NCBI GenBank assembly: GCA_000724175.1
Contig: JPGV01000029.1
Location: 11,379 to 75,378, forward strand
DNA: 64,000 nucleotides
Reading direction: 5' to 3'
Source of the DNA: [Candidatus Thermochlorobacteriaceae] bacterium GBChlB
GTDB lineage: Bacteria; Bacteroidota; Chlorobiia; Chlorobiales; Thermochlorobacteraceae
Part shown: piece after piece, positions 24,314 through 56,002 of the stretch
Numbering within the stretch: the first letter of the stretch is position 1
How the letters are laid out: each line of letters opens with the position of its first letter
Notes under the pieces: model-generated
What the model saw: only the letters and a program-made list of their open reading frames with translations
Told to the model about the DNA's origin: nothing
Database searches by the model: none
Program-made: the position numbers and the translations under genes

Positions 24314-24338
24314 GGTGCTTGTAAAATTAATTGTTGGA

Positions 24339-25853: not shown

Positions 25854-25857
25854 TGTA

Positions 25858-26946: not shown

Positions 26947-26948
26947 CG

Positions 26949-28157: not shown

Positions 28158-28184
28158 AGATGAAAAAGTAATGGTTGAAGATGG

Positions 28185-29729
28185 TCAGTGTTGAAAATTA
28201 AATCGATCGACTTCTTGCAGTGCGGCGACAATGCCTTTCTGAATGATGTTATTGAGATGTCGAGCAACCAGAGGGCTGAAATCTTCAAACCCATCAAGGT
28301 TCATTCCCCAAAGGTCTTGATTGACAGCAATGCCTTTTACAAATCGTATCACGTCGCTGAGGTTGTAGGGGTCAATATATTTCCATTGATGAAAAAGAAA
28401 CGGTGCGAAATCATCGTGAATGAGATAAGAGTGAACTTTCCCTTTCGCATTGAGCTGCCCGTAGACGCTTGACCCGACACATTCTACGCCACGACTGAAC
28501 CACAAATATGCCGCAAATCCAAAAAGAATATGCGTCGGAAGATGACCATGCTTTTCGTAGTATTTGCGAATGATGGGTAGAACGCGCGTCTTGAATTTTG
28601 ACGTGTATTGAAAAGTGATGTCATGAAGTTTGTGTCGGAGAAATGGATTGCGAAAACGATTCAGAACTTCGCGGGCGAAATCTTCCTTGTGGTCAATATC
28701 CAAACTCGGTAGAATTTCTTGATAGACGACACGCTCGACAAATGTTCCTAAAAGAGCATCGTTCATCATGTCAAGAACGGTCTCCTTTTCAGCAAGGAAT
28801 GCAACGGCGACTGAAATCGTGTGCGCGCCATTCAAAATGCGCAGTTTGCGCTCGCGATACGGCGTGATGTTTTTTGTGATAATGACGCTGGGAACTGCCT
28901 CTCTAAACGAACATACTTGCTCAACCATTGCGTCGCCTTCAATCGCCCAAAGGCTGTAAAGTTCAGCGCAAATGAGCAAGTTATCGATGTACCCTAATCG
29001 CTGTTGAAGTTCAAGCAGTCGTGGCGTGTCGGGTTTTCCCGGCACAATTCTATCCACGAGCGAATTGCAAAACCGATTGTGTTTCAAAAGCCACTCCGCA
29101 AAGGCATCTCCGAAATTGGCTTTCTCGGAATGTTTCAAAACATAATCACGAAGTTTATCGCCGTTGTTCTCGACGAGTTCAGTGGGAATAATGACAAAGC
29201 CTTTTTCAGGAAATTTCTGAAATCGCTCAAACAAGAATCGAGCGAGTTTGGCAGGAAAAGAGTCGGGCGGAGTGAACCGTGCAGAATCATCGGCATCATA
29301 GACCAAGCCGACTTCGGTCGTGTTGGAGACAATGAGTTCAAGTGTTGGAATCGCGGCGCATTGAAGCACTTGTTGCCAATCATCGGTTGCGGAAATCGCG
29401 CGGCTGATGGAAGCCAGAACGCTGTAACGCTCAGCTGCTTGACCTTCTTCAAGCCCCTGCTCGCAAACGGTGTAAAGTCCCTCTTGATGATTGAGCGCGT
29501 CGCCTTTACCTTTTGCGGTTGATTGCACCACAATCACGCGCCCGTTGAAGATGCCTTGATGATTTGCTTTGTCAATGAAGAAATCCGTAAAACCGCGAAG
29601 CAATACGCCTGAACCAAATTGAATGACTTTTTCAGGCAGGTCAAAAAATTCTTTTTTCGGAACGGCGATGTCGGTTCTTGCTTGAAATGACGGGTTGAGA
29701 GCGAGATTCTTATTTAGCACAACACTCAT
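28185..29729 (-). CDS. uxaB: tagaturonate reductase (altronate oxidoreductase), mannitol dehydrogenase family
   Basis: Start moved to MSVVLNKN (ATG at 29729). Colinear with E. coli UxaB as I recall it: LPEKVIQFGSGVLLRGF, SNTTEVG, FPAKLARFLFERF, IIPTELVENNGDKLR, FCNSLVDRIVPG, ILNGAHT, RFRNPFLRHKL. The track ORF's extra N-terminal MLRRYAPRND.. is translation of a repeat element. Confidence 0.85.
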   Translation of the reverse strand: MSVVLNKNLALNPSFQARTDIAVPKKEFFDLPEKVIQFGSGVLLRGFTDFFIDKANHQGIFNGRVIVVQSTAKGKGDALNHQEGLYTVCEQGLEEGQAAERYSVLASISRAISATDDWQQVLQCAAIPTLELIVSNTTEVGLVYDADDSARFTPPDSFPAKLARFLFERFQKFPEKGFVIIPTELVENNGDKLRDYVLKHSEKANFGDAFAEWLLKHNRFCNSLVDRIVPGKPDTPRLLELQQRLGYIDNLLICAELYSLWAIEGDAMVEQVCSFREAVPSVIITKNITPYRERKLRILNGAHTISVAVAFLAEKETVLDMMNDALLGTFVERVVYQEILPSLDIDHKEDFAREVLNRFRNPFLRHKLHDITFQYTSKFKTRVLPIIRKYYEKHGHLPTHILFGFAAYLWFSRGVECVGSSVYGQLNAKGKVHSYLIHDDFAPFLFHQWKYIDPYNLSDVIRFVKGIAVNQDLWGMNLDGFEDFSPLVARHLNNIIQKGIVAALQEVDRFNFQH

Positions 29730-29759
29730 ACGGAAATAGTTTAAGAGTGAGTAAAAACA

Positions 29760-29835
29760 GTCATTGCGAGGAGCGTAGCGACGAAGCAATCTCCAACGCT
29801 TCTTTTGGGGATTGCTTCGCTACGCTCGCAATGAC
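29760..29835. repeat. palindromic intergenic repeat element ('..RYAPRND../..EATKQS..' type)
   Basis: Left arm GTCATTGCGAGGAGCGTAGCGACGAAGCAATC (29760-29791). Right arm GATTGCTTCGCTACGCTCGCAATGAC (29810-29835). The arms are reverse complements apart from two 3-nt bulges in the left arm, with an 18-nt loop. Lies between the GH28 stop and the uxaB start. Confidence 0.8.
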
Positions 29836-29866
29836 AATACATTATCATTCTCACTCGATTTTGGTA

Positions 29867-31453
29867 TCACTTGTTTATCAAATTTGCTTGTTGCAAAAAT
29901 TGGTTTTTCAGAAAGTTTTTAGGCAAGAGCCACGCATTTTTTGCATCTAAAAAATTATTCATCAAGAGCGACAGCCTGCCGCTAAACGCGCCGTCGGCTT
30001 TTAGAAACGTCGCCGTATTCGGGAGCGCGGTTGAGTTTCTGATGAGGCAATCGCCCGAATCTATCAGTAAAATCACGGGGAGCGAGCCATCATCTTTTGC
30101 CTGTCGACCGGTGAAATGCTCGATTTGAATATCTCTGACTTTATTCAAGCAAAGCCCGTGTCGGTCGACGACCGTATTTTCGGCAAAGATGCTGACGCCC
30201 TGAACAGCAACCTTCTGAGCGCAGCCAATCGTGATGTGCGCTGGTATAGACGCGAAATCGACGCTGCCTTTGATGTCGCCAAGTTTGCGGTTGCCGCGCG
30301 GCTTTTTGAATGTCGAGACATCAACGCCTTGCGCAACGTGCATTGAGATGCCTTCAAGCGTGAGATGTTCAAGCGGCGCGTCGGGCTGTCCAGCGATGAG
30401 ACAGTTGCCGCGCGTCGTGATGTTGAGATTAGAAAATTTGATGTGGCGAATCTTGCCATACCTGCCGCTCTCTTCTCGCTTCTCGACATCGATGTAAATC
30501 GGGTATTCGGTGGCGTAACGCGAGCGCGTCTCTATCGTGAGATTGCTGAAATCGATATGTTCAAAAACGCCGCCATCTTTCATAAAGAGCGCGACGGCAA
30601 ATCGCGTGTTACGAATAATGCAATTTGAGAAACGACAGTGCGAGATGCGCGTGCCCGACCCAGTGCCGAGTTTGAGCGCGGCATCGTCGGATTCAATGAT
30701 GCAATTTGTAACGACGACATTCTCCGTCGGCTTGTCCTTGCCTTTGTCTCCGCCTACATCGTCGGAGAGGGCGGCATTTCTCGTGCCGTCCGAGACTTTC
30801 AAGCAAATCGCATCGTCGCCTGTCGAGATAAAGCAGTTTGAAATCATCACGTTTGAAGTGGAGGTGATGTCAATGCCGTCGGTGTTAGGCGAGCGCATAT
30901 CGTTGAGAATCGTGATGCCGTCGACAACCACGCGATTGCAACCAATGAGCGCAACGACATGCGCGGGAGAGTTTTGCAATTTCACATCGCGTATTGAGAT
31001 GTCGGTTGCATCTTCCAATAAAATCCACGGTGCCGGTCGGTCGAGCGGATTATACTTTTCGTCCCAAAACGCTTTGCCGTTGCCTTCAATGACGCCTTGT
31101 CCTGTGAGCGAAAAATTTGCAATTCCTGCGCCGTAGAGCAAGTGTTTATGCGCGCTGTCGTAGTCGGCAAGGTTTGCACTGCCCACGAGTTCGCAGCCGG
31201 CTTCGAGATGCACTCTCAAATTGCTTTTAAGAAAGAGTGTGCCTGTAAGAAACTTGCCTGCGGGAATGACAATCGCGCCGCCACCGCGCTTATCGCAAGA
31301 GTCAATCGCCGCTTGAAGAAAGCGTGTGTTGAGCGTTTTGCCGTCGCCTTTTGCGCCGAAGTCGAGCACATTCAGCGAGGGTTTCTGCGCCGAAAGGGTT
31401 GGCGCGAAGAAGCAACAGATGAAAACGCAGAAAGCCGTTTGACGTAAGTTCAT
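29867..31453 (-). CDS. glycoside hydrolase family 28 (polygalacturonase / exo-poly-alpha-galacturonosidase), Sec signal
   Basis: 528 aa. Signal MNLRQTAFCVFICCFFAPTLSAQ. GH28 motifs SPNTDGIDI and TGDDAICLK, with parallel beta-helix repeat character. Confidence 0.85.
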   Translation of the reverse strand: MNLRQTAFCVFICCFFAPTLSAQKPSLNVLDFGAKGDGKTLNTRFLQAAIDSCDKRGGGAIVIPAGKFLTGTLFLKSNLRVHLEAGCELVGSANLADYDSAHKHLLYGAGIANFSLTGQGVIEGNGKAFWDEKYNPLDRPAPWILLEDATDISIRDVKLQNSPAHVVALIGCNRVVVDGITILNDMRSPNTDGIDITSTSNVMISNCFISTGDDAICLKVSDGTRNAALSDDVGGDKGKDKPTENVVVTNCIIESDDAALKLGTGSGTRISHCRFSNCIIRNTRFAVALFMKDGGVFEHIDFSNLTIETRSRYATEYPIYIDVEKREESGRYGKIRHIKFSNLNITTRGNCLIAGQPDAPLEHLTLEGISMHVAQGVDVSTFKKPRGNRKLGDIKGSVDFASIPAHITIGCAQKVAVQGVSIFAENTVVDRHGLCLNKVRDIQIEHFTGRQAKDDGSLPVILLIDSGDCLIRNSTALPNTATFLKADGAFSGRLSLLMNNFLDAKNAWLLPKNFLKNQFLQQANLINK

Positions 31454-32676
31454 TTGTTTAGTTTTAGTTTTTCCATTTCTTTTTCATCGACCTCTAATCC
31501 GAGTCCTTCGCTCTGAGGCACGAACAAAAATCCGTCTTCGAATTTGAGCGCGCTTTTGAAGAGACCGCCGAGTTTCATCTCTGGTCTCATTCCCGAAAAC
31601 TCTTGCACCTTTGCGGCATTGGTTATCGAGGCGACCAAATTGAGCGTTGCCGCCGTTGCCAGCGTCGGGCGCGTGTTGTGCGTCATTACTTCTTTCTCGA
31701 ATGCTTCACCCATTGAAGCGATTTTTTTGCACTCCGAAATGCCGCCGCACTTTATCACATCAAGATTTAAGCAGTCAGGATTGCCGATGGTGATGAGGTC
31801 GCGGAATTGCCACTTGTTGTATTCATGTTCGCCCGCATTCACCTCGCACGGCAACGCCTCGACGACTTGCCGCAAGCCGCGATAATCCATACTTGATACA
31901 GGTTCTTCAACCACTTTGATATTGAAATGCTCATAGAGTTTGAGCCCAAGTTCTATGGCTTTGCCGGCGGTGTAGCCGTTGTTAAAATCCACGAAGAGTT
32001 CAATCTCATCGCCGACGGCTTTGCGAATGGCTTTGATGCAGTCGTAGGTGAAGTTGAACGGCGGATTGCGGTCACGGTCGTAGAGTTGCATTCGCGCTTT
32101 GATGGTTTTGTAGCCTTGCTCGACGAACTTCATTCCTTCCGCCGCCATTTCGTCAGGCGTTTTGAACCCGCCTTTTTTGCGTCGACCGTAGCTGCCATAC
32201 ACCGCGACTTTCTCGACTTTACTGCCGCCCAAGAGTTGATGCACGGGCATTTTGAGCAAGCGACCTTTCAAATCCCAGAGCGCGTTATCGATGCCTGCCA
32301 GCGCGCCCGGCACAAAGCCTGTGTTGCCGCCCTCAAATCCTTCAAAGAAGCAATCCTTCCAGAGATGTTCAGAGTTGAACGGATTTTCGCCGATAAGACG
32401 CGGCTTGAAAATTTGCTCTACGATGGTTGCATTGATTGCCGTGAATTCGTGGTCGCCTTCGCCCCAGCCTGAAATGCCCGCGTCCGTTTCAATTTTGACG
32501 AAGGTGGCTTTTTGAAGCGCATATACTTTGACGTTGGTAATTTTCGCGCCTGATTTCACATCGCCCGCCTCTGCTTGATTTTCCTTGCGTTCACGGGCGA
32601 CTGTCGTTTCAGAGAACGTTGTGCCGAGCGCGCCGAGCGCGGCGGTTTTGATAAACTGTCGTCGATTGAAAGTCAT
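31450..32676 (-). CDS. enolase-superfamily (mandelate racemase/muconate lactonizing) enzyme with twin-arginine signal peptide
   Basis: 408 aa. Tat motif MTFNRRQFIKTAALGALG. Barrel motifs ALWDLKG, LLGG, candidate metal ligands in LFVDFNNGY / VVEEPV / NAGEHEY, then LDVIKCGGISE. Confidence 0.8.
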   Translation of the reverse strand: MTFNRRQFIKTAALGALGTTFSETTVARERKENQAEAGDVKSGAKITNVKVYALQKATFVKIETDAGISGWGEGDHEFTAINATIVEQIFKPRLIGENPFNSEHLWKDCFFEGFEGGNTGFVPGALAGIDNALWDLKGRLLKMPVHQLLGGSKVEKVAVYGSYGRRKKGGFKTPDEMAAEGMKFVEQGYKTIKARMQLYDRDRNPPFNFTYDCIKAIRKAVGDEIELFVDFNNGYTAGKAIELGLKLYEHFNIKVVEEPVSSMDYRGLRQVVEALPCEVNAGEHEYNKWQFRDLITIGNPDCLNLDVIKCGGISECKKIASMGEAFEKEVMTHNTRPTLATAATLNLVASITNAAKVQEFSGMRPEMKLGGLFKSALKFEDGFLFVPQSEGLGLEVDEKEMEKLKLNK

Positions 32677-33968
32677 TGCTCAATGATGAGTTTGCGTTCT
32701 TCAAGCCGCTTGATGTCTTTTTGATAAATCGCCCTCACGGTTTCAAAAAACTCTTTTGCAAGCGCAGCATAGTTACGTCGATTAACGGCATCGACTTCCG
32801 ATTTTAATTTTTTCGGTATGACATCTTTGCCCTTCATTGCGCAGAGCAAACTTGTGGCGACGGCGGCAATGGTTTCTGCATCGCGCCCGTAGAAAATTCC
32901 CGCTTTGAGCGTTTTGAAATAATCGCCGTTTCCATATTTGAGCGCGGCGAGCGCAATCGGCACGTTTTCAATCGTGGCAATGCGAGACGGGCGACCGATG
33001 TTTGTGCCTTCGCGCAACATTTTTGGAGTCTCGATATTCTTTTGCTTCAAGAGAGCAGGAGAAAGTTGGAGATAAGGAAGAACTGCCTCACGCGTTTTAG
33101 CGGAAAACTGCTCAAAGGAATCATTCGTATCGATGGCGGCAATGACATCTTGCAGAGAAAGTCGAACGCCATCTTTGGCGACGCGAAGTGCGGTTTCAAG
33201 AATAGAGTTAATCGTACTGTTTTTGCGGAAGGCTTCGGCGAAAGCGGCGGCGTTCATTCCGGCGCACTCTACGCCGTAAGATTCGGTGTGCGCCATCGCA
33301 ATCGAGGTCGCTTCATCGTAAGCCCCAAACGCATCGCCCGCATTGACCGCGCCGACAGGCATCATAATGCCTTGAAAGCCCTCGTTAATCCAGTTGCCCA
33401 TTCCCGCATAGCGCGGCTCAATGTTATTGATGACCAATCGCTGATACACATATCGTTCAGGTTGCCACAGCGGACGCTCAAACGGCGTCATCATTTCGCC
33501 TTTCTCGGCAATCCAAACTTTTTTCCCGGTGATTTCTTTGATGTAAAACTCGGCGTAATCGTTGGCATCGAGATGGTCTTGGTGGCGCAAGTAACAGCCG
33601 ATTAAGGCTTCAAGGTTGAGCGTGTCGTCAGTGGTTCTGCCGTCGCCTTTGCCTTGTTTTTTTTCGATGTCCGATTTTTTCGTCGTCGGCAAAAAATTGT
33701 TGAAGTCCCAATTTCCGAACTGCGCGAGCGTTTGTTCAGGCAGGTTGTTTTCGACCGAGCCGCCCATTGCATCGGCAATGACGAAAGCGTAAAGTGCTTC
33801 TTCGATTTTTTCTTGAAGCAACGGCGATTGCGCAACGGCGTGCGCGCGAGTTGATGGTGTTGAAACGAAGAGACCCGCTGTGCCGAGCGAAAGCGTCTTC
33901 AAAAAATGTCGGCGCGAGTTGTTTTGAGTGTTGTTCATCATCGTGAGCGAGTTTGAGTTATTCCACAT
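32673..33968 (-). CDS. ADP-ribosylglycohydrolase (ARH/DraG) fold protein with twin-arginine signal peptide
   Basis: 431 aa. Tat motif NSRRHFLKTLSLGTAGLFV...AHA. ARH-family boxes FVIADAMGGSVEN, GRTTDDT and a C-terminal YGRDAETIAAVATSLLCAMKG. Family assigned by motif pattern only. Confidence 0.65.
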   Translation of the reverse strand: MWNNSNSLTMMNNTQNNSRRHFLKTLSLGTAGLFVSTPSTRAHAVAQSPLLQEKIEEALYAFVIADAMGGSVENNLPEQTLAQFGNWDFNNFLPTTKKSDIEKKQGKGDGRTTDDTLNLEALIGCYLRHQDHLDANDYAEFYIKEITGKKVWIAEKGEMMTPFERPLWQPERYVYQRLVINNIEPRYAGMGNWINEGFQGIMMPVGAVNAGDAFGAYDEATSIAMAHTESYGVECAGMNAAAFAEAFRKNSTINSILETALRVAKDGVRLSLQDVIAAIDTNDSFEQFSAKTREAVLPYLQLSPALLKQKNIETPKMLREGTNIGRPSRIATIENVPIALAALKYGNGDYFKTLKAGIFYGRDAETIAAVATSLLCAMKGKDVIPKKLKSEVDAVNRRNYAALAKEFFETVRAIYQKDIKRLEERKLIIEQ

Positions 33969-35277
33969 CTACAAGTTGCATTTTGGGAATGATGAGATGA
34001 AAGAGCAAGAGCGCGACGAGATACGCCGAGCCGGCAATGATGAAAATCGGCACATAACTGCCTGTCGCATCGAGAATGTACCCGACCAATTTTGCAATGA
34101 ACATTCCGCCGACCGCGCCCGCCATTCCGCCAATGCCGACGACCGAGCCGACCGCTTGTTTCGGAAACATATCCGAGACGGTCGTAAATAAATTCGCTGA
34201 CCAGCCTTGATGCGCCGCCGCCGCAAGCGAAATCAATCCGACCGCGACCCACAAGCTCGATGCTTGCGCCGCGAAGAACATCGGCACAACGCACAGCGCG
34301 CAAACCAGCATCGCAGTTTTGCGACTAAAATTGACCGTTTGTCCATTTGCCATTAACATCGATGAAATCCAGCCGCCGCCGATGCTGCCGATGCTTGCGG
34401 CGAGATAAACGGCAACGAGCGGTAATCCCATCGCCTTCAAATCCAAGCCATGTTGTTTGCTTAAAAAATCGGGAAGCCAAAAGAGATACACCCACCAAAT
34501 TGGGTCGGTGAGAAACTTTGCGAGAGAAAACGCCCAAGTCTCTTTGTGTGGAAAAAGCAACGCCCATTTGACGCTTTGAGAAGCACCATCGGCATCGCTT
34601 TGAATGTAAGCAAGTTCCGAAGGCGAACAGCGTGCGTGCGCTTCGGGCTTTTGATACATCAGCCACCACGCCACCAGCCAAACAAACCCCAACGCGCCTG
34701 TGATGATAAACGCCCACTCCCAGCCCATTGAGGAGACAATTAGCGGAACGAGAATCGGTGTGGAAAGAGCGGCGATATTCGTGCCTGAATTGAAAATCCC
34801 GGTTGCCAGCGCACGCTCTTTTTTTGGAAACCACTCCGCAACAGTTTTTATTGAAGCCGGAAAATTTGCCGCCTCGCCAAAGCCTAAGACGAATCGCGCG
34901 ATGCTGAATCCCACAACGCTACGCGCAAATGCGTGACCAATCGCAGCAACGCTCCAAACCACCACCGCAAGCGCGAAAGCAAGCCGAGTTCCAAGTTTAT
35001 CAATAACCGCGCCGACGCTGACCAGACCAAGCGCGTAAGCGACTTGAAACGCAAAGACAATGTTGCTGTAATCAATTTCGCTCCACCCCAATTCGGTTTG
35101 AAGCAAGGGTTTGAGAATGCCGATAATTTGTCGGTCGACATAGTTGATGGTGGTTGCGAAAAAGAGCAAGCCGCAAATTGTCCATCGATAGTTGCTGCGC
35201 AAGTTGTCTTGTCGGTCTATGAGCGGCTCTTGCGCTGCCGCGTCGTCTCTGAATTTTGTCTCTGTCATTGCCGCCAT
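33958..35277 (-). CDS. exuT: MFS hexuronate transporter (ACS family, ExuT-like)
   Basis: 439 aa. INYVDRQIIGILKP, AEWFPKKERALATGIFNSGTNI, WEWAFIITGALGFVW..WW.MYQKP. Colinear with the E. coli ExuT pattern as recalled. Confidence 0.8.
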   Translation of the reverse strand: MAAMTETKFRDDAAAQEPLIDRQDNLRSNYRWTICGLLFFATTINYVDRQIIGILKPLLQTELGWSEIDYSNIVFAFQVAYALGLVSVGAVIDKLGTRLAFALAVVVWSVAAIGHAFARSVVGFSIARFVLGFGEAANFPASIKTVAEWFPKKERALATGIFNSGTNIAALSTPILVPLIVSSMGWEWAFIITGALGFVWLVAWWLMYQKPEAHARCSPSELAYIQSDADGASQSVKWALLFPHKETWAFSLAKFLTDPIWWVYLFWLPDFLSKQHGLDLKAMGLPLVAVYLAASIGSIGGGWISSMLMANGQTVNFSRKTAMLVCALCVVPMFFAAQASSLWVAVGLISLAAAAHQGWSANLFTTVSDMFPKQAVGSVVGIGGMAGAVGGMFIAKLVGYILDATGSYVPIFIIAGSAYLVALLLFHLIIPKMQLVDVE

Positions 35278-35321
35278 ACGTCGAGTGTAGTTTAGTATTG
35301 TGAAATCAGTGTTATAGAATT

Positions 35322-37010
35322 TTATGCTCTGCCGAGTTGCGCCGTCAAGAGCGCCAGCCCGATAATCCCAATCACGGCAAGCGTTCCCAAAGCGAACCCC
35401 TGCACATCGACGCGATAACGTTTCAGACTGAAGGTTTTGCTTAGCGACAACAAATCGACCAAGAGCAATCCGTGACCGTTGTCTTCGAGCGATTCTGTTT
35501 TGACCGCATTCGTCGCCGCAACCGAATCGCCCGCCAGCATCACTGCAATGCCTGCTTCTTTGAGTTTGTATTCTTCGCCGACGGGCGTGTGCAAGAGCGT
35601 GTAAAAATCGTTGAGTTTTTTTTCGGATTCAGGTTTTGTCAAGAGACTTGCCGCAATGAGCGAGAGAAACCCAAGCGGCAGGTAAAGCGCAGCTTGATAC
35701 TCTAACGACCACTCCATCGCGCCGGTGATGAACGATGCGCTCGCGGTTACAATCACCGACACCCACGCGCCGACCGCGTTGGCGCGTCGCCAAATCACGC
35801 CCATCCAAAATGCAATGCCCAAGAATGCCATAATTTTCCAAACGAGTTTCAAGCCCTCGACCACCGACGGAATGAGCAAGGCGACCGTTACGCCGAGCGC
35901 GACAATGCCGACCGAACTCAGGCGCGCCACACGGAGCGACTCCGATTCGGATAACTCTTGGTTGAAAAATTTTTGATAGAAATTTCGCGTGAAGAGCGCG
36001 GAGCCGGCAATCATATACGCATCGCACGCTGAGACGACCGCCGCGACCATTGCGGCAATCATTAGCCCGGTAAAACCAACGGGCAAGAGCCGTTGCACCG
36101 CCGCGCCGAAGGCTTGTTCTCGATTCGGAAGCTCCGAAAAAATCGCCGCAAGCAAGACGCCCGTGAACGCCCAACCCAGCGTTGCAAAGCGTTTGATGAA
36201 CGTGCCGAACGTCCAGCCGCTTCGACAACTTTCTTCGGTTTTGCCCGCGCCGTTGATTGCCATGTGGTGCGGATAGACGACAATTCCAACCAGCCCGTTG
36301 ATGACGGACATCACGATAAAGAACAGCGTTACTTCGTTTGGCGCAACGAGGCTGAACATTTCGTCAGGCAATTTTTCGCGCACTGCCGCCAAGCCGCCCG
36401 CCGCCGACAGCGCAAAGGGAATGAGCAAAAATGACAACACGAGAATCAATAGCCCTTGAACAAGTTTTGTGCCTGCCGACGCCGCCAAGCCGCCGACCAA
36501 ACTATACGATAAAAAAAATGCCACCATCAGCGCGACCGTTGCTTCTGTCGTGATTGCGCCGTTGGTGATTGCCGAAATCGTAACGCCCGTGCCTTTGAGG
36601 ATAATCCCGATTTCAACCGCGAAGTAACACAGTCCCGCAACCGCGTATGCCGCCGACATTGAGACGCTGTAACGCTGCTCGAAAAAATCGCCGATGGTGA
36701 TGTATCGAAGGCGTCGATAAATCGGCGCGATAATCCAAAAAAACGGCGTGGCGAAAATGTAGAGCCATTGATACCAAATGCCCGCAAGCCCGACTTGATA
36801 CGACGCGCCGACGACCGCCACCACTTGGTCGGTTCGCGTTCCCGCGCCGAAGGCTTGCGCAACCATCATTATTTTTCCAAAACTGCGTCCGCCCATAAAG
36901 TAATCGCCGCTCGATTTCACCGCGCTCTTCGCTCTTAGCCCGACATAAATCGTGATGCCGAAATACGCCGCAATGATGACAACATCGATTGGATTCAATC
37001 CGAACATCAT
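35322..37010 (-). CDS. sodium:solute symporter family (SSF) transporter
   Basis: 562 aa with about 13-14 hydrophobic helices. DYFMGGRSFG near the N-terminus is typical of SSF. Substrate unknown. Confidence 0.8.
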   Translation of the reverse strand: MMFGLNPIDVVIIAAYFGITIYVGLRAKSAVKSSGDYFMGGRSFGKIMMVAQAFGAGTRTDQVVAVVGASYQVGLAGIWYQWLYIFATPFFWIIAPIYRRLRYITIGDFFEQRYSVSMSAAYAVAGLCYFAVEIGIILKGTGVTISAITNGAITTEATVALMVAFFLSYSLVGGLAASAGTKLVQGLLILVLSFLLIPFALSAAGGLAAVREKLPDEMFSLVAPNEVTLFFIVMSVINGLVGIVVYPHHMAINGAGKTEESCRSGWTFGTFIKRFATLGWAFTGVLLAAIFSELPNREQAFGAAVQRLLPVGFTGLMIAAMVAAVVSACDAYMIAGSALFTRNFYQKFFNQELSESESLRVARLSSVGIVALGVTVALLIPSVVEGLKLVWKIMAFLGIAFWMGVIWRRANAVGAWVSVIVTASASFITGAMEWSLEYQAALYLPLGFLSLIAASLLTKPESEKKLNDFYTLLHTPVGEEYKLKEAGIAVMLAGDSVAATNAVKTESLEDNGHGLLLVDLLSLSKTFSLKRYRVDVQGFALGTLAVIGIIGLALLTAQLGRA

Positions 37011-39727
37011 TCAATGCCGCCTTTCTCATCTGACTTTTTCAGTTTCATTGCTCGATGCGGCGGCTCGCCGATGATGTAGTCGATTTTTAATTGGTCGGTT
37101 GCTGAATCGCCGCGCTTCGTTCCCTTTGCCGTAAAGACGTGTTCGCCTTCGCTCCACTGCACATTCCAAACAAACGTCGCTTTTTGCACGCCGAGCGATT
37201 TGCCGTTGTGAAAGAGTTCAAGGCTGTCGCAATTTGTAAATACCCGTAGAGGCTTGATTTCATTGGGCTTTCCAAAGAGTCGCGTTCTCGTGTGCGAGAC
37301 GATATACGCCATCGGCTTTTGCGACCACTTGCTCTGGTATAAATAGTAAGCATCTTTTGGAACGCGCTTGTAATCGACCAGCCCTTTTTCGTTGATGCGC
37401 GGAATGTTGCCTTGCTTGGCGTGCGAGGCAAAGTCTGCGCCGTTCCAGACCGCGCCGCCCGCAATCCACTCGCGCTCGCCAAGTTGTTTCAAATATCCTT
37501 CGTGAAATTTCACTTGATAGGTTTCGCTGAAATCCATTCGCTGCGGGTCATCGACGTGAAAGCCGCGTTTGCCGTCCGCGCCGTATTCGCTGATAAGAAT
37601 TTTCCAATGCGGGTGCAAACGATGTTCTTCGTCCATAATTTTTCCGAAGTCTTCAATCATGCGTTGATACCAGCCGGAATATCGATTACGCCCAACCACG
37701 TCGGTCAGGTTCATCACCGATGTATCAGCGAGCGTATTTTGTGCTTGAATCGTGAGCCGCGTCGGGTCTTCCGATTTAGCGAGCGCGTGCAATTCGCCGA
37801 TGAGTTTCAGACAGAGCTTCAAATCCTCGTCGGTCAGCCAAGGCTCAATGGTTTCATTGGCGACGCCCCAGAAAACAATCGACGGATGGTTTCGGTCTCG
37901 CCGAATCAACTCGCGGAGCATTGTTTTCGTGTTTTCAAAAAACTGTTCGCGCCCAACGGAATTGACATAAGGGATTTCGGTATAAACGATAATGCCGAGC
38001 CTGTCGCATTCGTCGAGCATTGATTCATCGTGCGGATAATGCGCAAGCCGAACAAAGTTTATTCCCATTGCTTTGAAGAGCCGCAGGTCTTGAACGCGCA
38101 CGGAGTCAGGGACAGCATTGCCGTAGCCGAATCGGTCTTGATGCAAATTCACGCCGCAGAGTTGCAGTCGCTTGCCGTTGAGAAAAAATCCTTTATCGGC
38201 GGTAAACTCGAACCAGCGAAATCCGATGTTTGTCGTTATCTCGTCAAGCGCGGGCGCGCGGTTGCCCGATTCCATCTCGGCTGTGTCATAAATGCGCGAC
38301 ACAACTTGATACAGCGCGGGCGATTCGGGCGACCAGAGCGCGGGATATGCTATCTCGGCAACACTCTGCGTAAATAAATGCGTTTGGAATTTCTCGACGG
38401 TCGCCGTTGTCGTCATTGTCGCAACGATGTATCCCTCGGGCGAAATAAGGTTTGTTGCGAGCGTGAGCGTTTTCGTTTCGCCGTCGTTTCGAACTTGCGT
38501 AACGGCGTTGAGCGAGGCGGCGGATTTCGAGACGGCGGGCGTGGTTATCGTAACGGACTCGATGTGCGTGTTGTTAGTGATGTGCAATGAGGCTTCGCGG
38601 GTCAAGCCGCCGGGCATATTGAAGTCGCCGACGTGCGGCGGAATATCGGGCGAATAGGCGTTGTTTACTTTTACGGCAATCACATTGGGTTTGCCGAACA
38701 TAAGTTTATCTGTTAGGTTAAATTTAAAATTCAGAAATCCGCCAATGTGCTTTCCAAGCGGTTTTCCGTTGAGCCAAACTTCCGCCGTTTGGTTTGCGGC
38801 TTCAAATTCAATCCAAAGTTTTTTTCCATTGGCGTCGTCGGGCGGCGTGAAAGTTTTTCTATACCAAGCGTCGCCGCGATAGTAATTGGCGTAGATGTCG
38901 AGTCCGTCGTTGAGATTGCGGTCGTCGTATTGGTCGGTTGCGTTCCACGTGTGCGGCAGGGCAACGCGCTCCCATTTTGAATCGTTGAACCCGACGCTTT
39001 CGGCGTTCTTCGGATTGCCCGTTGTGAATTTCCACTCTTGCGTAAAGTCGATTCGTCGTCGGGCGGGTTTGGTTGGAAAAGCGAGCGGTTGCCACTCGTT
39101 CATTTTTTCGCCGTGCGAAATTTTGAGCAGTCGCGCGTCGCCTGCGCCAAGCGAATAGACGAGCCGCCGCGCCGCGCCGAAAACAGATTTATCGATGAGA
39201 ATCTCGACGCGCTTTTTTTCGGTCGTTGCAATGAACAAAATGACTTCCTCGTCTTTGCCTTCGCCGTTTTCAAATGCGATGTGAAAAGCATTCGATTGCA
39301 CAAGGGCGGTGATGTCTTTTCGTGCTTTCACGCGCCGAAGGCTGCTGCGGATGTCGCCTTTGAAGTTGGCATAGACATAGCCGTCCATCACAAACGCGCT
39401 GAATGCGCCTTTTGGGTGCGGAATATTTTTCGCGGCAATCCATCGCCAGTCGGATTTCAGCGCAGGCTTCAAAATGAATTTTTCGCCCAAGTCTTCGATG
39501 CCGAAGTAGGGAATCGTTTTGATGTCTTTGCCCAGCAGCACTTGGTTTTCTTTGGCATCAGGCGTAAAAAATTGCGTTTGGGGAAATCCAACAACGGGCA
39601 AAAACAGAAACACTGATGCCGCCCACAGAACGGCAAGGCAGTCCAAAACAGCCTGTAAAATCAATGGTTTTCGGCTGACCGTCTTTTCTGTGGTTGATGC
39701 GCGGCTCATATTTTTTTTCTTGCTCAT
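37007..39727 (-). CDS. glycoside hydrolase family 2 enzyme with N-terminal membrane anchor and ~230-aa extra N-terminal domain
   Basis: 906 aa. The GH2 sugar-binding region (WERVALPHTWNA...YYRGDAWYRKTF...LWIEFEAANQTAEVWLNG), the TIM barrel NFVRLAHYPH, acid/base VFWGVANE and nucleophile region LISEYGADG. Confidence 0.85.
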   Translation of the reverse strand: MSKKKNMSRASTTEKTVSRKPLILQAVLDCLAVLWAASVFLFLPVVGFPQTQFFTPDAKENQVLLGKDIKTIPYFGIEDLGEKFILKPALKSDWRWIAAKNIPHPKGAFSAFVMDGYVYANFKGDIRSSLRRVKARKDITALVQSNAFHIAFENGEGKDEEVILFIATTEKKRVEILIDKSVFGAARRLVYSLGAGDARLLKISHGEKMNEWQPLAFPTKPARRRIDFTQEWKFTTGNPKNAESVGFNDSKWERVALPHTWNATDQYDDRNLNDGLDIYANYYRGDAWYRKTFTPPDDANGKKLWIEFEAANQTAEVWLNGKPLGKHIGGFLNFKFNLTDKLMFGKPNVIAVKVNNAYSPDIPPHVGDFNMPGGLTREASLHITNNTHIESVTITTPAVSKSAASLNAVTQVRNDGETKTLTLATNLISPEGYIVATMTTTATVEKFQTHLFTQSVAEIAYPALWSPESPALYQVVSRIYDTAEMESGNRAPALDEITTNIGFRWFEFTADKGFFLNGKRLQLCGVNLHQDRFGYGNAVPDSVRVQDLRLFKAMGINFVRLAHYPHDESMLDECDRLGIIVYTEIPYVNSVGREQFFENTKTMLRELIRRDRNHPSIVFWGVANETIEPWLTDEDLKLCLKLIGELHALAKSEDPTRLTIQAQNTLADTSVMNLTDVVGRNRYSGWYQRMIEDFGKIMDEEHRLHPHWKILISEYGADGKRGFHVDDPQRMDFSETYQVKFHEGYLKQLGEREWIAGGAVWNGADFASHAKQGNIPRINEKGLVDYKRVPKDAYYLYQSKWSQKPMAYIVSHTRTRLFGKPNEIKPLRVFTNCDSLELFHNGKSLGVQKATFVWNVQWSEGEHVFTAKGTKRGDSATDQLKIDYIIGEPPHRAMKLKKSDEKGGIE

Positions 39728-40941
39728 AAAATTTCAACTTTTTCAAAATCCGATGGGCGATACTCGATTCCTAAGCCGACGCCTGTTGGCAGTTCCACCT
39801 TCCCATTTTTGATTTCGCCGAGCGGCTTAGACGAGCTGTTCAAATTGTATTCTTGAAACGCGCCGATGTTCGGAACAACAGAGATAAAATGTCTGAATGG
39901 ATATGCGCCGACGCCGAACTTTGGGGAGTGGCAGTCAATCGTCATGCCCGCTTCCGCCGCCATTTTTGCCACGCGCAATGTTCTGACAAACCCACCATTG
40001 TAGAACAAATCGGGCTGCACTACATCGACGATTTTATGTTTTATCATCGCCTTGAACTGCCATAAACTTGTGTCCTGCTCGCCGCCTGCAATCGGCATAT
40101 CCAGCGCGTCGGCGACGGCTTTCGTGCTGTCGTAATCCTGCCACGGACACGGCTCTTCCCAAATTTTCACGCCGTTGTCTTGCAACAGTTTTCCCATCTC
40201 AATCGCCGTTGGCACATCGTAAGAGCTGTTCGCATCGGCGTAAATTGTAACACTGTCGCCGAGTTTTTTGCGGGCAAGTTTTATCAGCGCCTCGCTTCGA
40301 TTTTCGATTTTCGCTGATTCCGCTTTCATTCGTCCGCCCACTTTAATTTTCACAGCGCGGCAACCGGTTTCCGCAAAATCTCGCTCGATAATTTCCAATT
40401 CTTTTTCGGGCGTTGTGTCGCGCGTCAGCCGCGTCAAATAAACTGAGACATCGTTCCGAATTCTCTTTCCCAACAACTCATACACCGGCTTGTTCGCCGC
40501 CCTCGACATCATATCGAACAGCGCGATTTCAAGATTGCCCACAGAGTTCCAAAACGGCATTCCTGCAAATTTGTAATTCGAGCCTTCGGTATAGACGCCA
40601 TCAACAAGCGTTTCAACATCTCGCGCATCTTTGCCGATGAAAAACGGCACGACGAGTTCTTTGAACAGCGAGATGACCTGCGGCACTCGATTGTTGGCTT
40701 CGATAATGCCGACTGCGCCGTTCTTTGCCGTTACGCGAATGAACAGGTCTTTTTCGCGACGCAGGATTTCGGCTTTTTGTATGATGAGCGGAACAGTAAC
40801 GGCTTTGTGCAAGTCCAGCATCGGCGCAAACGTGAGCGTCGCACTTTGCATCGCTGTTGCAAGCGTTTCGCCCGCCGAAACCAACGGCGTCGTCAATGCG
40901 CCTGCGCCAAGCAGTCGGAGAAACTCGCGTCGATTCATCAT
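39724..40941 (-). CDS. enolase-superfamily enzyme (MR-subgroup-like motif pattern) with twin-arginine signal peptide
   Basis: 405 aa. Tat motif MMNRREFLRLLGAGALTTPLVSAG. KxK in AVKIKVGG. Candidate ligands IYADANSSY / IWEEPC / IAGGEQD, then VVQPD and IDCHSP. Confidence 0.8.
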   Translation of the reverse strand: MMNRREFLRLLGAGALTTPLVSAGETLATAMQSATLTFAPMLDLHKAVTVPLIIQKAEILRREKDLFIRVTAKNGAVGIIEANNRVPQVISLFKELVVPFFIGKDARDVETLVDGVYTEGSNYKFAGMPFWNSVGNLEIALFDMMSRAANKPVYELLGKRIRNDVSVYLTRLTRDTTPEKELEIIERDFAETGCRAVKIKVGGRMKAESAKIENRSEALIKLARKKLGDSVTIYADANSSYDVPTAIEMGKLLQDNGVKIWEEPCPWQDYDSTKAVADALDMPIAGGEQDTSLWQFKAMIKHKIVDVVQPDLFYNGGFVRTLRVAKMAAEAGMTIDCHSPKFGVGAYPFRHFISVVPNIGAFQEYNLNSSSKPLGEIKNGKVELPTGVGLGIEYRPSDFEKVEIL

Positions 40942-41985
40942 CTAACTTTTAGAAAATGTCTTTAAGTGCCGCTGGTAAATTTCCATGAGCTTATCAGGGC
41001 TTTGCGTATTTCGCGGATAAAAGTAATACGCCAAGTGGTCGGGCTGCTTGGCAATGACTTTCGGCAAGCCTCTGTCAATCGCGGCAAGGTCGGCGTCGGC
41101 GACAGAATGATTTTGCGTCGAGAACATCAACTTCGCGTTTGCTTTTCGCGCGTAGCCGCTGATTTTTTCCGCCACGTCCAACAGTCCGACTTCTTTTTCA
41201 TCTAATTTCAACGCCTGTATTTCTTCGTTGCCGAAGGGCTTGCCGTCGCAGCCAAAATAATCCAGTCCTTCAATCGCGCTTGCCGCTTGCCACTCGTCGT
41301 CTGTTGAAGCTGCGTCAGTTGTGAGCGTAATGACCGCGTCTTTTTTCTGCTGTTTGATAAACTCATTGAGCGACGAGACGAACGCTGCAAACGCCTTGAC
41401 GTGGGCTTCTTTCGGGGCGCTTTTGCCTAATTTTTCAACTGCTGTCGGCGAGAAGTCTTGACGAAATCCCTTGGGTTCGTGCCAAATGATTCCATCGATT
41501 CCAATGTCAAGTATCTTTTTTAAACTGCTTTTGAAAAACTCTGTCGTTTCAGGATGATGAATGCTGCTCATCATCATTCCCGATTGCAGGAGCGGCGACC
41601 CATCTTGTTTTAAAATCCATGTGTGCGGGCGTTGTGCCGTAAATGAACTCGGCACGCGCATTGAGCCTGAAAACAGCCCTGCCCACCGTGAGGGCATTGC
41701 AAACACGTGCAACCCCAGCGTCTGCGCTTCTCTGATGATGAAGGCAAGATTTTTTTCTTCATGTGTAAAATCCTGTTCGAGAATCGAGAGCGTGATAGCC
41801 ATCGTGCCGCACGCTTTCATTACAGCGACGTCGTCGCGGATGTGTTTCGGCACAAACGTTCCCATTCCGGCGCGGAAGTAGTAGGCGTTGAGCAATCGCG
41901 CCGATGTGGCGCGCGCGCGGCTTGTCCGTGCGACAGATAGACCCAGCGCAGCCAGAGAGGTTACGATAAAGTCTCTTCGATTCAT
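40942..41985 (-). CDS. twin-arginine-signal protein of unknown function (possibly TIM-barrel glycoside-hydrolase-like)
   Basis: Start moved to MNRRDFIVTSLAALGLSVARTSRARA (ATG at 41985). 347 aa. An alternating beta/alpha-looking pattern with GIIWHEPKG. Its stop abuts the next gene's ATG. No family recognised. Confidence 0.5.
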   Translation of the reverse strand: MNRRDFIVTSLAALGLSVARTSRARATSARLLNAYYFRAGMGTFVPKHIRDDVAVMKACGTMAITLSILEQDFTHEEKNLAFIIREAQTLGLHVFAMPSRWAGLFSGSMRVPSSFTAQRPHTWILKQDGSPLLQSGMMMSSIHHPETTEFFKSSLKKILDIGIDGIIWHEPKGFRQDFSPTAVEKLGKSAPKEAHVKAFAAFVSSLNEFIKQQKKDAVITLTTDAASTDDEWQAASAIEGLDYFGCDGKPFGNEEIQALKLDEKEVGLLDVAEKISGYARKANAKLMFSTQNHSVADADLAAIDRGLPKVIAKQPDHLAYYFYPRNTQSPDKLMEIYQRHLKTFSKS

Positions 41986-42216
41986 TGAAGCCGACGCTGC
42001 TAAGATTGATGAAATTGATTTATTGACGCGCGCCTTGTTGTAAATAAGGGGTTCGCCCGCCCGCATTCCTTGACGGACGAGCGAACTCCAAACAACTATG
42101 ACAACGAGAACCAAAGAACAGCTCGCCGACGCCGACTCTAATGGAGCAAACCAGTCAGTCGCTCGGCAAGAAATGGGCTTAGAACGTTTTCTCGACTCTT
42201 CGCCACAAGGCTCGCC

Positions 42217-43530
42217 TTACTTGACAAGCATCATTTTTCTTGTCTCTGTGAATGTTCCGGCTTGCAATCGATAGAAATATATTCCGCTCGATAGGCCTGC
42301 TGCATTGAACGTGGCTTGATAACGCCCGGCGGCTTGCCTTGTATTTACAAGCGTCGACAGCTCCCGTCCCAGCATATCATACACGACCAACTTGACATCG
42401 ACAGACGTTGGCAATTGATAACTGATGACCGTCGAAGGGTTGAACGGGTTTGGATAGTTTTGGTCGAGCGCAAATTCGGTTGGCCTTGCAGCTGTTTCGA
42501 TGCGCGTGCTGAGTGGCGCAGCCGGCGTCAGGACGATGCCTGAATCGCAGGCAATCACGCCGTTGGTTCCGGCAATCGAGACCGCGCTGAATTCCGCAAT
42601 TGTGGGCAATCCCGTAACGCGCGTCCAAGTCGTGCCGCCGTTGGTGGTCGTCCATAATGCGCCGGGCAAGGAGCCGAGACCGCCGCCCGTCATGTAGCCC
42701 GTGTTGCGCGAAACAAATTGCATATCGGTCATTCGCGTCGTGTCGCCCGCGCCGATGCTTTGTTTCACCCAATTTGCGCCAGCGTTAGTCGAGAAGAATA
42801 CATTGCCCGAATCGCCCGCTACCCAAATGGTGTTTGCATCTGCCATCCACACGGCGCGGAAAGCGCGCGACGGGCTTGGCGTGCGAATGCGCGTCCAAGT
42901 CAAGCCTGCATCATCAGAACGCATCACCACACCGGAGTCGCCGACAACCATCGCCGTCGTTGCATTGAGCGCGAATACTTTACGCATATCGCTGCGCGTG
43001 ATGCCTTGCCGAATGGGCGTCCATGTTCTGCCTGTATCCGTTGTGCGAATAATTTGCCCGCCTCTGCCTGCTGCAATTGCAATTGCAGGCGTTAAGAAGC
43101 GCACCGAGTTGACTGCCGGATTGCCCGCAAATGTTTGCGTCCATGTCCGTCCGCCGTTGAGTGTAAAGAGCAGGTAATTGTTTGCCGCCGTGCCGCCGCC
43201 GCCAACGACAATCCCTCGATTGGTATCCGTCGGGCAGAAGCGAATGTCGCGCAGGGTAATCGGCGAGGAGCGATCTTTATCGAAGCGTTCCCCTGTCCAA
43301 TTCAGTCCGCCGTTGAAACTGCGGTAGATGAGCGTGCGCACACCGACGACCCACATATTATTTGCATCGCGCGCAAATGCGCCTTCCATTTCAACAGACG
43401 CTGTAGGGTCTCGAACAATCGAGACGCCGCCATCGACGAGTCCGTTGGTTCGCAACACCCAAGACTGTTGAGCATATACGGTTCCGCAAATGAGCAGCAG
43501 TGCCATTGCGAGTGATAATCTTCTTGTCAT
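42217..43530 (-). CDS. BNR-like/Ycf48-like beta-propeller repeat protein with T9SS C-terminal sorting domain
   Basis: 437 aa with a signal peptide. Repeated G(G/R/L).(T/N)W(T/V) units (GGLNWT, GGRTWT, TGRTWT, AGLTWT, AGANWV, GGTTWT). C-terminus [22 protein letters not shown]...VYDMLGRE...IYFYRL...RKMMLVK. Confidence 0.75.
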
Positions 43531-43584
43531 AGAAAGACATTGTTTTGATGTTGAAAAAAGTAACGTGTTAAAAAATGTGCTGGA

Positions 43585-46560: not shown

Positions 46561-46682
46561 AGTTTTCTTGGAAAAAGTTGAACAAGTTTTGTTGATACGT
46601 CTTTGTTGCCTTGTCTTCTCCGCGCTGCTTCCCATGCCAACGCGGTAACGTTGTTTTTACTTACGAGACGATTTGGACGACG

Positions 46683-48515: not shown

Positions 48516-48701
48516 GTTAAAATTGTATATTAGGTATACTAAGTTTTTTACAACTTCTTTGGCGGCATTTCTGCCTAAGAGCAATTTCTTTTAGGTCAAA
48601 CGAAGTCAAACTAACAGTTACGCCAAGTCAGGCTTCCTTCCTGTTGTCAAGGCTTTGCGGCATTGCCGTCGTTGGAACTTCAACGAGCAGCAGTTTTCCT
48701 G

Positions 48702-49868: not shown

Positions 49869-50066
49869 TTGTTGATAGAATTGGAAATGTTTTTGTTTTT
49901 TACATACTTGGTATATGAGGTTGATATTACATTTTTATTTTCAAATTGTCAACGTTTTTTTACGAGCCGCAGTTGTTGTATTGGCTTGAACTTTACGGCG
50001 TTATATTTACGACATACTTGGTATTGCGTTGTTATCGCTCATTTTCATTACTCTTTGACCGCGCGC

Positions 50067-55997: not shown

Positions 55998-56002
55998 CGT
56001 CG

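Follow-up and report, generated by a model that had tools for sequence, protein, structure and literature searches.

Predicted exported enolase-superfamily and ARH-fold enzymes in a candidate acidic-glycan locus of a Thermochlorobacteriaceae bacterium

We analysed a stretch of 64,000 nucleotides from Candidatus Thermochlorobacteriaceae bacterium GBChlB (GenBank assembly GCA_000724175.1, contig JPGV01000029.1), referred to here as the window, whose numbering is used throughout. Hosts of this type probably inhabit hot springs. On the minus strand, which carries all genes of the locus discussed here, the list of open reading frames (ORFs) together with Pfam and NCBIfam scans places a string of eight genes at 29867-41985: a family 28 glycoside hydrolase (GH28), a first enolase-superfamily enzyme (ENS1), an enzyme of the ADP-ribosylglycohydrolase fold (ARH), transporters of the MFS and sodium:solute symporter (SSF) families, a GH2 enzyme, a second enolase-superfamily enzyme (ENS2) and a protein designated UNK. 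On balance, with a chance that we put somewhat above even, this region represents the periplasmic and transport stage of a TonB-dependent locus, assisted by the type IX secretion system (T9SS), for an acidic, uronate-containing glycan, with the exported ENS and ARH enzymes acting at this stage. More tentatively, and well short of even probability, the exported ENS pair, often accompanied by the exported ARH-fold hydrolase, may carry out a metal-dependent, non-hydrolytic step (lyase-type elimination or C5 epimerization) on periplasmic uronates in many Bacteroidota. The genes of the string mostly overlap by 4 nt or abut, and the widest gap is 44 nt. The order and families that an earlier note on this DNA had assigned were reproduced by the ORF, Pfam and NCBIfam assignments; its view of a hexuronate operon with four inserted genes was not borne out, the string being instead the periplasmic and transport half of a receptor-linked locus at 21252-48584, which also encodes a TonB-dependent receptor, a T9SS protein, a beta-glucuronidase and the cytoplasmic hexuronate genes.

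A hallmark of the string is the N-terminal sequence N/S-R-R-x-F-[LI], which is found in exactly four of its proteins: NRRQFIK in ENS1, SRRHFLK in ARH, NRREFLR in ENS2 and NRRDFIV in UNK. All four resemble the S/T-R-R-x-F-L-K motif of twin-arginine translocation (Tat) signals, which was expected no more than ~35 residues from the start codon, in the positively charged part that opens the signal; the N-termini that the earlier note had quoted are present exactly as written there. When the six frames of the 64-kb window were searched for [polar]-R-R-x-[FLIVM]-[LIVMF] with an open frame of 200 codons or more behind it, five sites were obtained, four of which are these N-termini, while the fifth is internal to UxaA. 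Scoring of the isolated N-termini with hidden Markov models (HMMs) of Tat signals placed ARH (21.2 bits) and ENS1 (17.1 bits) above the TIGR01409 cutoff of 16.7 bits; the same model gave no match to the Sec-type N-termini of GH28 and of the BNR protein of the locus. TIGR01409 is the best-scoring family for the ARH N-terminus, and another Tat-target model scores slightly above it for those of ENS1 and ENS2. With PF10518, ENS1, ARH and ENS2 reach 22.2, 17.9 and 16.3 bits, and none of the four proteins attains the cutoff of 22.7 bits. The hydrophobic cores are weak (best 12-residue Kyte-Doolittle mean 1.2-2.1, compared to 2.5-3.0 in the Sec signals of GH28, the BNR protein and the TonB-dependent receptor), as in Tat signals, and were therefore counted in favour of Tat-type export. 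Putative cleavage sites of the A-x-A type (TVA, AHA, VSA and ARA) were read by eye. The predicted Tat-type signal peptides are thus MTFNRRQFIKTAALGALGTTFSETTVA for ENS1 (32596-32676), MNNTQNNSRRHFLKTLSLGTAGLFVSTPSTRAHA for ARH (33837-33938), MMNRREFLRLLGAGALTTPLVSA for ENS2 (40873-40941) and MNRRDFIVTSLAALGLSVARTSRARA for UNK (41908-41985, with cleavage placed at A-R-A). From these sequence features we infer a periplasmic location of the four proteins, with Tat as the route in the window lineage.

The earlier note had raised the concern that conserved homologues might start at downstream Met codons and lack the signal. This did not materialize: homologues of all four proteins keep N-terminal signals, whose position and motif are maintained while the hydrophobic and cleavage-region sequences diverge, as is typical of signal peptides. 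In the ENS1 family, the first Arg (R5) is invariant and the following F-L, which includes F8, nearly so. Among ARH relatives, 34 carry RR and 17 RK signals; at 55% identity and above, every relative whose N-terminus is intact has RR or RK, those of 43-50% have mostly a plain Sec signal and those near 40% mostly none. RR signals occur in about half (36/76) of the best 50%-cluster representatives of ENS2, many of the others being fragments or signal-less forms, and are kept in all ten ENS2-like partners encoded at ENS1 loci (10/10). Most of the 29 UNK homologues start with MxRRxF, including those from Acidobacteriota. In the related locus L004, the ARH signal is replaced by a near-copy of the signal of the neighbouring ENS1 (FIKIAALGALGSTFLETATARERKENQ versus FIKTATLGALGSTFLETAIARERKKNQ), and the mature ARH nevertheless starts at the same residue, PLLQEKIEE. 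The regions concerned are L004:16492-16680 and 17760-17930 and window positions 32573-32660; the copy in the L004 ARH gene has 86% nucleotide identity, over 88 nt, with the ENS1 signal of the window. The ARH signal differs from the ENS1 signal in the window and in L001, and P0122 shows the same pattern of exchange as L004. It looks as though the signal-coding segment was swapped between the neighbouring ENS1 and ARH genes in L004, and since the mature start is retained, the signal appears to behave as a separable, exchangeable targeting module.

Both predicted exported ENS enzymes retain the catalytic equipment of their superfamily. ENS1 (31450-32676; MR_MLE_N and MR_MLE_C, PF02746 and PF13378) is galactonate-dehydratase-like and has the features of the mandelate racemase subgroup: a capping domain and TIM barrel, three carboxylate ligands, and Lys and His-Asp bases. 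K193, R195, D230, E257/E258, E283, H284, D306, K309 and H333 are invariant among 34 family members; the active-site residues of both ENS proteins were assigned to strands by motif. The best NCBIfam match of ENS1 is galactonate dehydratase (GalD; 211 bits, below the cutoff of 311), and its best PDB sequence match is 5olc (E = 1.9e-45), a galactonate-dehydratase-like enzyme of the carrageenan pathway of Zobellia. An exact-sequence look-up of ENS1 found nothing on record; its 120 best relatives cover the full query. ENS1 is conserved more widely than any other member of the module. In a scan of one genome per species, orthologues of 45-77% identity, N-terminus included, were found in ~40 species, among them Cytophagales, Saprospiraceae, Flavobacteriaceae, Ignavibacteriota/Melioribacter, KSB1 and Solibacter; the best species-level match (76%) is a metagenome-assembled genome of Candidatus Kapaibacterium. 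ENS2 (39724-40941; Pfam MR_MLE_C and MR_MLE_N), also of the mandelate racemase subgroup, is closest to the solved structures 3u4f, 3t8q, 3tcs and 3t9p (E ~1e-55), which stem from structural genomics and were deposited merely as family proteins or as “putative racemase”. The alignment with 3u4f shows conservation of DAN, EEP, GGEQD, QPD and the barrel His, that is, of the metal and base motifs. All four structures align from ENS2 residue ~57-62 onward and so lack the signal extension. The ENS2-type family comprises 178 cluster representatives at E <= 1e-30. A foreign base composition of ENS2 and UNK was considered and rejected, as their GC content (0.505-0.507) is like that of their neighbours.

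The ARH gene (ORF at 32673-33968) encodes a predicted exported enzyme with two metal sites, which is assigned to PF03747 with E = 1.6e-29 (103.9 bits versus a gathering threshold of 26.2). Its true start is probably the ATG at 33938 (MNNTQNNSRR...) rather than 33968, since close homologues point there. D56, E63, D104, D105 and D353 are invariant in both family alignments and E355 in the close-homologue alignment A4; these residues correspond to the metal and catalytic motifs of ARH enzymes (two-metal site, catalytic Glu). The AlphaFold2 model has a mean pLDDT of 90, and Foldseek matches it to MJ1187, ARH3 and DraG at 13-19% identity. A single-sequence PDB search gave nothing useful, and a profile search returned distant matches to the same three proteins. 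There are 174 relatives at E <= 1e-10, including cytoplasmic, signal-less ones at ~40% identity. In view of the periplasmic glycan context, a glycosyl substrate other than ADP-ribosyl is plausible for this enzyme.

UNK (40942-41985, start MNRRDFIV) had been left as an unknown by the earlier note and can now be placed as a predicted exported, glycoside-hydrolase-like (beta/alpha)8 barrel. It has no Pfam, NCBIfam or PDB sequence match. The AlphaFold2 model (mean pLDDT 89) has eight strand/helix repeats, and its best Foldseek matches in the PDB are Cwp19, GH42, GH14, GH36, GH5, GH53, GH164 and GH191, the lowest E being 1.6e-12 and the TM-scores ~0.6-0.65. The DSSP output for the model served to map residues to strands. 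The predicted acid/base, Glu170, is retained and invariant in the family after strand 4 (W-D/H-E-P-K), and position 291, the predicted nucleophile after strand 7 (E-N-H-N), is occupied by Glu in at least 90% of family members. The start at ATG 41985 is favoured by close homologues over an upstream TTG at 42114. The family is rare, with 29 homologues among 5.8 billion proteins; one member of its cluster is annotated as originating from a Candidatus Thermochlorobacteriaceae bacterium, and other relatives (at most 44% identity) are found in Acidobacteriota beside receptor, sulfatase and Gfo/Idh/MocA genes, with no ENS.

The earlier note had proposed to examine whether the exported enzymes occur together elsewhere, and they do: exported ENS1, RR-bearing ENS2-like proteins and exported ARH recur beside GH28, GH2 and TonB-dependent receptors in many Bacteroidota. 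In total, 41 loci with ENS1 orthologues were compared by clustering of neighbouring ORFs and by tblastn with the window proteins; since many contigs are short, the resulting counts are lower bounds. GH28 is present in 19/41 loci and directly adjacent to ENS1 in 12/41, a TonB-dependent receptor homologue in 19/41, GH2 of the type found in the string (GH2a) in 13/41 and hexuronate catabolic genes in 10/41. A second, RR-bearing ENS2-like gene is found in 10/41 loci, nine at 37-45% identity to ENS2 and L004 at 98%. T9SS-tailed beta-helix proteins are recurrent as well, in two clusters of 9 and 8 loci. A metagenome scan for ARH yielded 11 mostly short loci; the exported ARH adjoins an ENS gene, and usually GH28 too, in L088, L091, L092, L095, L096, L097, L099 and L100, and does not in L090, L094 and L101. 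The full window layout recurs in L004, with 96.3% nucleotide identity over 31452-50446, falling to 74% in GH28. L001 matches 26943-35194 at 91.5% nucleotide identity, and at 66-75% further left. These similarities suggest that 26943-50446 is a mosaic that arose when related populations recombined, with a breakpoint near the ARH and MFS genes.

Two further observations were made in these neighbourhoods. Glycerate kinases are recurrent: they are of the GlxK type in the window, L012, L014 and L042 (with an adjoining GntP permease in L014 and L042), and L100 carries one of the unrelated MOFRL type beside an SDF symporter. These kinases are unexplained by the canonical hexuronate route and may be a clue to the periplasmic chemistry. 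The Microscillaceae-type locus L099:106-11281 encodes a sulfatase, an ENS, an ulvan-lyase-like protein (PF25840/PF25841), GH28 and exported ARH, a content which suggests that related loci target sulfated glycans with glucuronate or iduronate.

The remaining genes of the locus provide the entry, trimming, transport and catabolic functions around the exported enzymes. The first gene encodes a UidA-like beta-glucuronidase (GH2b, 46683-48515) with Pfam GH2 domains, which scores 595.9 bits against the NF007538 equivalog cutoff of 544. Its N-terminus has no hydrophobic signal, and the enzyme is presumably cytoplasmic; a signal-less protein that passes a UidA-type cutoff implies uptake of some glucuronides in intact form. 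In the mechanical ORF list, the start of GH2b is placed 23 codons too early, at a TTG. According to Pfam, the next gene (43585-46635) encodes a TonB-dependent outer-membrane receptor with CarboxypepD_reg domain, Plug and barrel. It is followed by a BNR/Ycf48-like beta-propeller with a T9SS C-terminal sorting domain (42217-43530; Por_Secre_tail, TIGR04183 at 49 bits), which probably binds or processes glycans at the cell surface. Pfam and NCBIfam scans of the locus gave no match to the SusD/RagB family; as a receptor is present without a SusD partner, the locus is similar to a polysaccharide utilization locus (PUL) rather than a canonical SusC/SusD PUL. Within the string, GH2a (37007-39727; 906 residues with DUF4982) has beta-glucuronidase LacZ4 as its best NCBIfam match (462 bits, below the cutoff of 950). 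Its N-terminal extension of ~220 residues (39070-39727) opens with a hydrophobic anchor and has no family match, and the enzyme is presumably periplasmic or membrane-anchored. The GH2a counterpart in L001 is shorter (867 residues) and 61% identical. GH28 (29867-31453), assigned by Pfam and NCBIfam as polygalacturonase/rhamnogalacturonase-like, has a Sec-type signal. Of the two transporters that the earlier note had described as uronate-type, the MFS protein (33958-35277) indeed falls into the anionic-sugar subfamily (D-galactonate/ExuT/GarP; TIGR00893 260.6 bits, below the cutoff of 395), whereas the SSF transporter (35322-37010), assigned by Pfam and NCBIfam, is not demonstrably a uronate carrier.

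The window encodes the enzymes that define the cytoplasmic hexuronate isomerase pathway, namely UxaC, tagaturonate reductase, altronate dehydratase, KDG kinase and KDPG aldolase. Pfam scans place KDG kinase (KdgK) at 21252-22265, the Eda aldolase at 22265-22900, UxaC at 22907-24421 and a UxaA/GarD-type dehydratase at 24339-25964, whose sole NCBIfam match, galactarate dehydratase, is below its cutoff. Family scans identify the glycerate kinase of the GlxK type at 25858-26946. ManD (26949-28157) is signal-less, as had been stated before, and passes the ManD equivalog cutoff (717 bits versus 550). The tagaturonate reductase UxaB (28185-29789) likewise passes its curated cutoff (subfamily score 535 versus 359). 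No fructuronate reductase was identified in the window, despite the presence of the mannonate dehydratase ManD; with a tagaturonate reductase only, the glucuronate branch looks incomplete, unless the reductase at 28185-29789 is bifunctional.

A search for riboswitches and other known RNAs in 21000-49500 gave a single match, a tRNA at 21146-21219. Scans for promoters and terminators yielded counts no higher than in shuffled sequence, with the exception of one strong hairpin on the minus strand, a stem-loop of 14 base pairs (9 G-C) at 42051-42086 that matches no Rfam family. It sits between the BNR/T9SS gene and UNK, which are 231 nt apart, and may be a terminator or attenuator that parts the receptor genes from the ENS/ARH string. 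A separate minus-strand cluster at 52239-59061 encodes an AMP-binding enzyme, an MFS carrier, a KAS III-like enzyme, an SDR and two proteins without Pfam match (531 and 170 residues); it may be a lipid or secondary-metabolite cluster.

From the gene content, the locus could process its substrate in the following manner. The receptor, aided by the T9SS surface protein, would bring glycan fragments into the periplasm, where GH28 and the long GH2a may trim them. ENS1, ENS2, ARH and UNK would be exported in folded form, via Tat-type signals in this lineage, which would allow the Mg/Mn enzymes to fold, oligomerize and load their metal in the cytoplasm first. Enolase-superfamily enzymes abstract a proton next to a carboxylate. 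Speculatively, the ENS pair may thus remove, assisted by Mg2+, H5 of a uronate unit or monomer, the proton beside its carboxylate, and the outcome might be either C5 epimerization or beta-elimination at C4. Either outcome would convert units that are not handled by GH28, GH2 and UxaC into usable ones. The MFS and SSF carriers would then bring the products into the cytoplasm across the inner membrane, and the signal-less beta-glucuronidase together with UxaC, UxaB, UxaA, ManD, KdgK and Eda would complete the degradation there.

Several observations weigh against this scheme. We know of no glycan that requires an ENS step. Neither ENS1 nor ENS2 attains any NCBIfam equivalog cutoff, including those of the specific acid-sugar dehydratases (GalD, ManD, AraD, TalrD/GalrD, RhamD and GlucD), so that reaction and substrate are not fixed by family score; the best equivalog score of ENS2 is 126 versus a cutoff of 650 (AraD), and the ManD of the same locus, at 717 versus 550, served as a positive control for this scoring. 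KduI and KduD, which would be expected for an elimination product, were neither found in the window nor identified in related loci, and epimerization is slightly favoured over elimination for this reason. The recurrent glycerate kinases hint at aldarate-type or glycerate-releasing chemistry. As to export, UNK (13.4 bits) and ENS2 (12.8 bits) are below the TIGR01409 cutoff, and neither tatA nor tatC lies within the 64-kb window. Among 110 ENS1 relatives with an intact N-terminus, 13 have R-R, 70 R-K, 2 K-R and 25 R-x; since the second Arg is usually Lys or another residue, many members of the ENS1 family may use Sec or a relaxed Tat motif. The earlier description of the twin arginines as “textbook” therefore holds in the window lineage and not across the ENS1 family. 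As to UNK, the catalytic pair of clan GH-A (an acid/base Glu after strand 4 and a nucleophile Glu after strand 7) is incomplete in the window copy, in which position 291 (region 41115) is Gln, as it is in its 97% twin P0241. Because the predicted nucleophile is absent, the window UNK may bind its ligand instead of cutting it and may not be a conventional retaining hydrolase. Finally, ARH is found in just 4/41 ENS1 loci, and L001, in which ENS1 and ARH are 97% identical to those of the window, is missing ENS2 and UNK. With the UNK family also occurring elsewhere without ENS, the four genes do not form one fixed module, as had been supposed; judged by gene neighbourhoods, the conserved module is ENS1 and an ENS2-like enzyme (plus ARH) beside GH28/GH2.

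The alternative that survives best, in our view still rather unlikely, is that the exported ENS proteins are ordinary acid-sugar dehydratases acting in the periplasm on free aldonates or aldarates such as galactarate and glucarate, with import of the keto-deoxy products or of downstream glycerate; the link to glycan hydrolases would then be one of shared regulation only. Galactonate, arabinonate and talarate/galactarate dehydratases indeed give the best family scores, 5olc, the solved structure nearest to ENS1, is of the cycloisomerase/dehydratase type, and the MFS protein belongs to the galactonate/glucarate/hexuronate carrier subfamily. The galactarate dehydratase match of the UxaA-like protein, even if sub-cutoff, and the glycerate kinases of the window, L012, L014 and L042 (with the GntP neighbour in the latter two) and of L100 (MOFRL type) point in the same direction. 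However, every equivalog score is far below its cutoff, and neither the window nor the related loci revealed a uronate dehydrogenase, a GarL-type aldolase or a tartronate-semialdehyde reductase. Dehydration of a monomer before its uptake would bring no obvious gain, and the tight adjacency of ENS1 and GH28 (12/41 loci) suggests that ENS1 acts on what GH28 makes or needs.

A second alternative concerns the route rather than the reaction: the proteins may be exported by Sec, the RR of this lineage being a relic or coincidence, in which case the idea of folded, metal-loaded export fails. The R-K, R-N, R-Q and similar pairs of most ENS1 orthologues, the plain Sec signals of distant ARH relatives (43-50% identity) and the sub-cutoff Tat HMM scores of ENS2 and UNK would fit this possibility, but we regard it as distinctly unlikely, as the remainder of the Tat motif is conserved (invariant first R; F-L-K), the hydrophobic cores are weak, ARH and ENS1 pass TIGR01409, and RR is kept in 10/10 ENS2-like partners and in most UNK homologues, those of Acidobacteriota included. 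That the extensions are mis-called starts or structural elements, and all four enzymes cytoplasmic members of the hexuronate pathway, is highly improbable and was rejected: characterised ENS acid-sugar enzymes and ARH enzymes are cytoplasmic, and the four closest solved ENS2 relatives lack the extension, but the extensions show signal-peptide-like conservation of position and motif in homologues, end in A-x-A-like sites, have low AlphaFold2 confidence outside the fold and were apparently swapped between ARH and ENS1 in L004, while signal-less paralogues coexist (ManD in the locus and the cytoplasmic ARH relatives at ~40% identity).

Regarding the proposed periplasmic and transport stage with exported ENS and ARH enzymes, the literature search found no paper describing the arrangement and no characterised close homologue, in agreement with the earlier note, which knew of no described pathway of this layout. 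Neither an exported enolase-superfamily pair nor an exported ARH-fold enzyme was found described as a conserved part of glycan loci in the literature searched. Already known is the combination of a receptor-linked glycan utilization locus with the hexuronate pathway; the exported ENS pair and ARH within it appear to be new. Pectic or uronate loci of Bacteroidota, such as the pectin PULs of Bacteroides thetaiotaomicron, are coupled to the UxaC/UxaB/UxaA/KdgK/Eda pathway. The locus in the window shares with them a TonB-dependent receptor, periplasmic GH28 and GH2 enzymes, anionic-sugar carriers and the cytoplasmic hexuronate pathway, but it has a T9SS-tailed BNR propeller after the receptor instead of SusD, and it adds exported ENS and ARH-fold enzymes, whose roles were found described in no PUL.

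The individual enzymes likewise have relatives from which they depart. ENS1 and ENS2 share the two-domain fold, the Asp/Glu/Glu ligands and the Lys and His-Asp bases with cytoplasmic ENS dehydratases and cycloisomerases (GalD, ManD, TalrD/GalrD and 5olc), but they are predicted to be exported, their identity to characterised members appears only moderate, and all their equivalog scores are sub-cutoff. In their proposed chemistry, they would resemble polysaccharide lyases and uronate C5-epimerases, namely in the metal-assisted abstraction of the proton beside the uronate carboxylate; to our knowledge, the enolase-superfamily fold does not occur in any lyase or epimerase family. ARH has the all-helical fold and the motifs GDAMG...E, TDD and G-x-D-x-E/D-S/T in common with ARH3, DraG and MJ1187, from which it differs by its low identity (13-19%), its predicted export and its presence in a glycan locus, where ADP-ribosylated targets are unexpected; the last (second C-terminal) ligand is Glu in the window ARH and Asp in ARH3. 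UNK shares the TIM barrel, the Glu after strand 4 and, at the level of its family, the Glu after strand 7 with clan GH-A-type glycosidases (GH42, GH5, GH53 and GH164) and with Cwp19 (GHL10), but it belongs to no Pfam or NCBIfam family, its TM-scores stay at ~0.6-0.65, and the window copy has Gln after strand 7.

For non-hydrolytic sugar chemistry in the periplasm, there is a precedent: a Tat-signal Gfo/Idh/MocA enzyme participates in elimination-type glycoside cleavage (the 3-keto-glycoside route) in the periplasm of gut Bacteroidetes (10.1101/2024.03.25.586180; background in PMC8121099). Tat-exported, non-hydrolytic periplasmic sugar enzymes as such are thus not without example in Bacteroidota. 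Both systems would send non-Koshland cofactor or metal enzymes to the periplasm by twin-arginine signals, to act there on glycans prior to uptake. The folds and the chemistry are unrelated, however: the 3-keto-glycoside route relies on NAD-dependent C3 oxidation and on sugar-phosphate-isomerase-like enzymes, and there is no Gfo/Idh/MocA gene in the string of the window.

Judging from the conserved gene neighbourhoods, the recurrence of two of the four exported families (ENS1 and ARH) together with ENS2-like enzymes points to an undescribed periplasmic step in the breakdown of acidic polysaccharides. These polymers, which include pectins, glucuronans, ulvan-like glycans and the exopolymers of cyanobacteria and microbial mats, are major carbon pools, and their breakdown is currently framed in terms of glycoside hydrolases, lyases, esterases and sulfatases. 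If the proposal is true, a conserved periplasmic ENS pair beside GH28 and GH2 would add an enzyme class to this repertoire; it would represent the first polysaccharide-processing role of the enolase superfamily and, for the ARH fold, a new glycan-active role. Two sizeable families, the ENS1 and ENS2 types, would thereby obtain a function, having been without one so far. The module is also a test case for why Mg/Mn enzymes are sent through Tat, and it offers a concrete, experimentally tractable set of four proteins for expression and screening.

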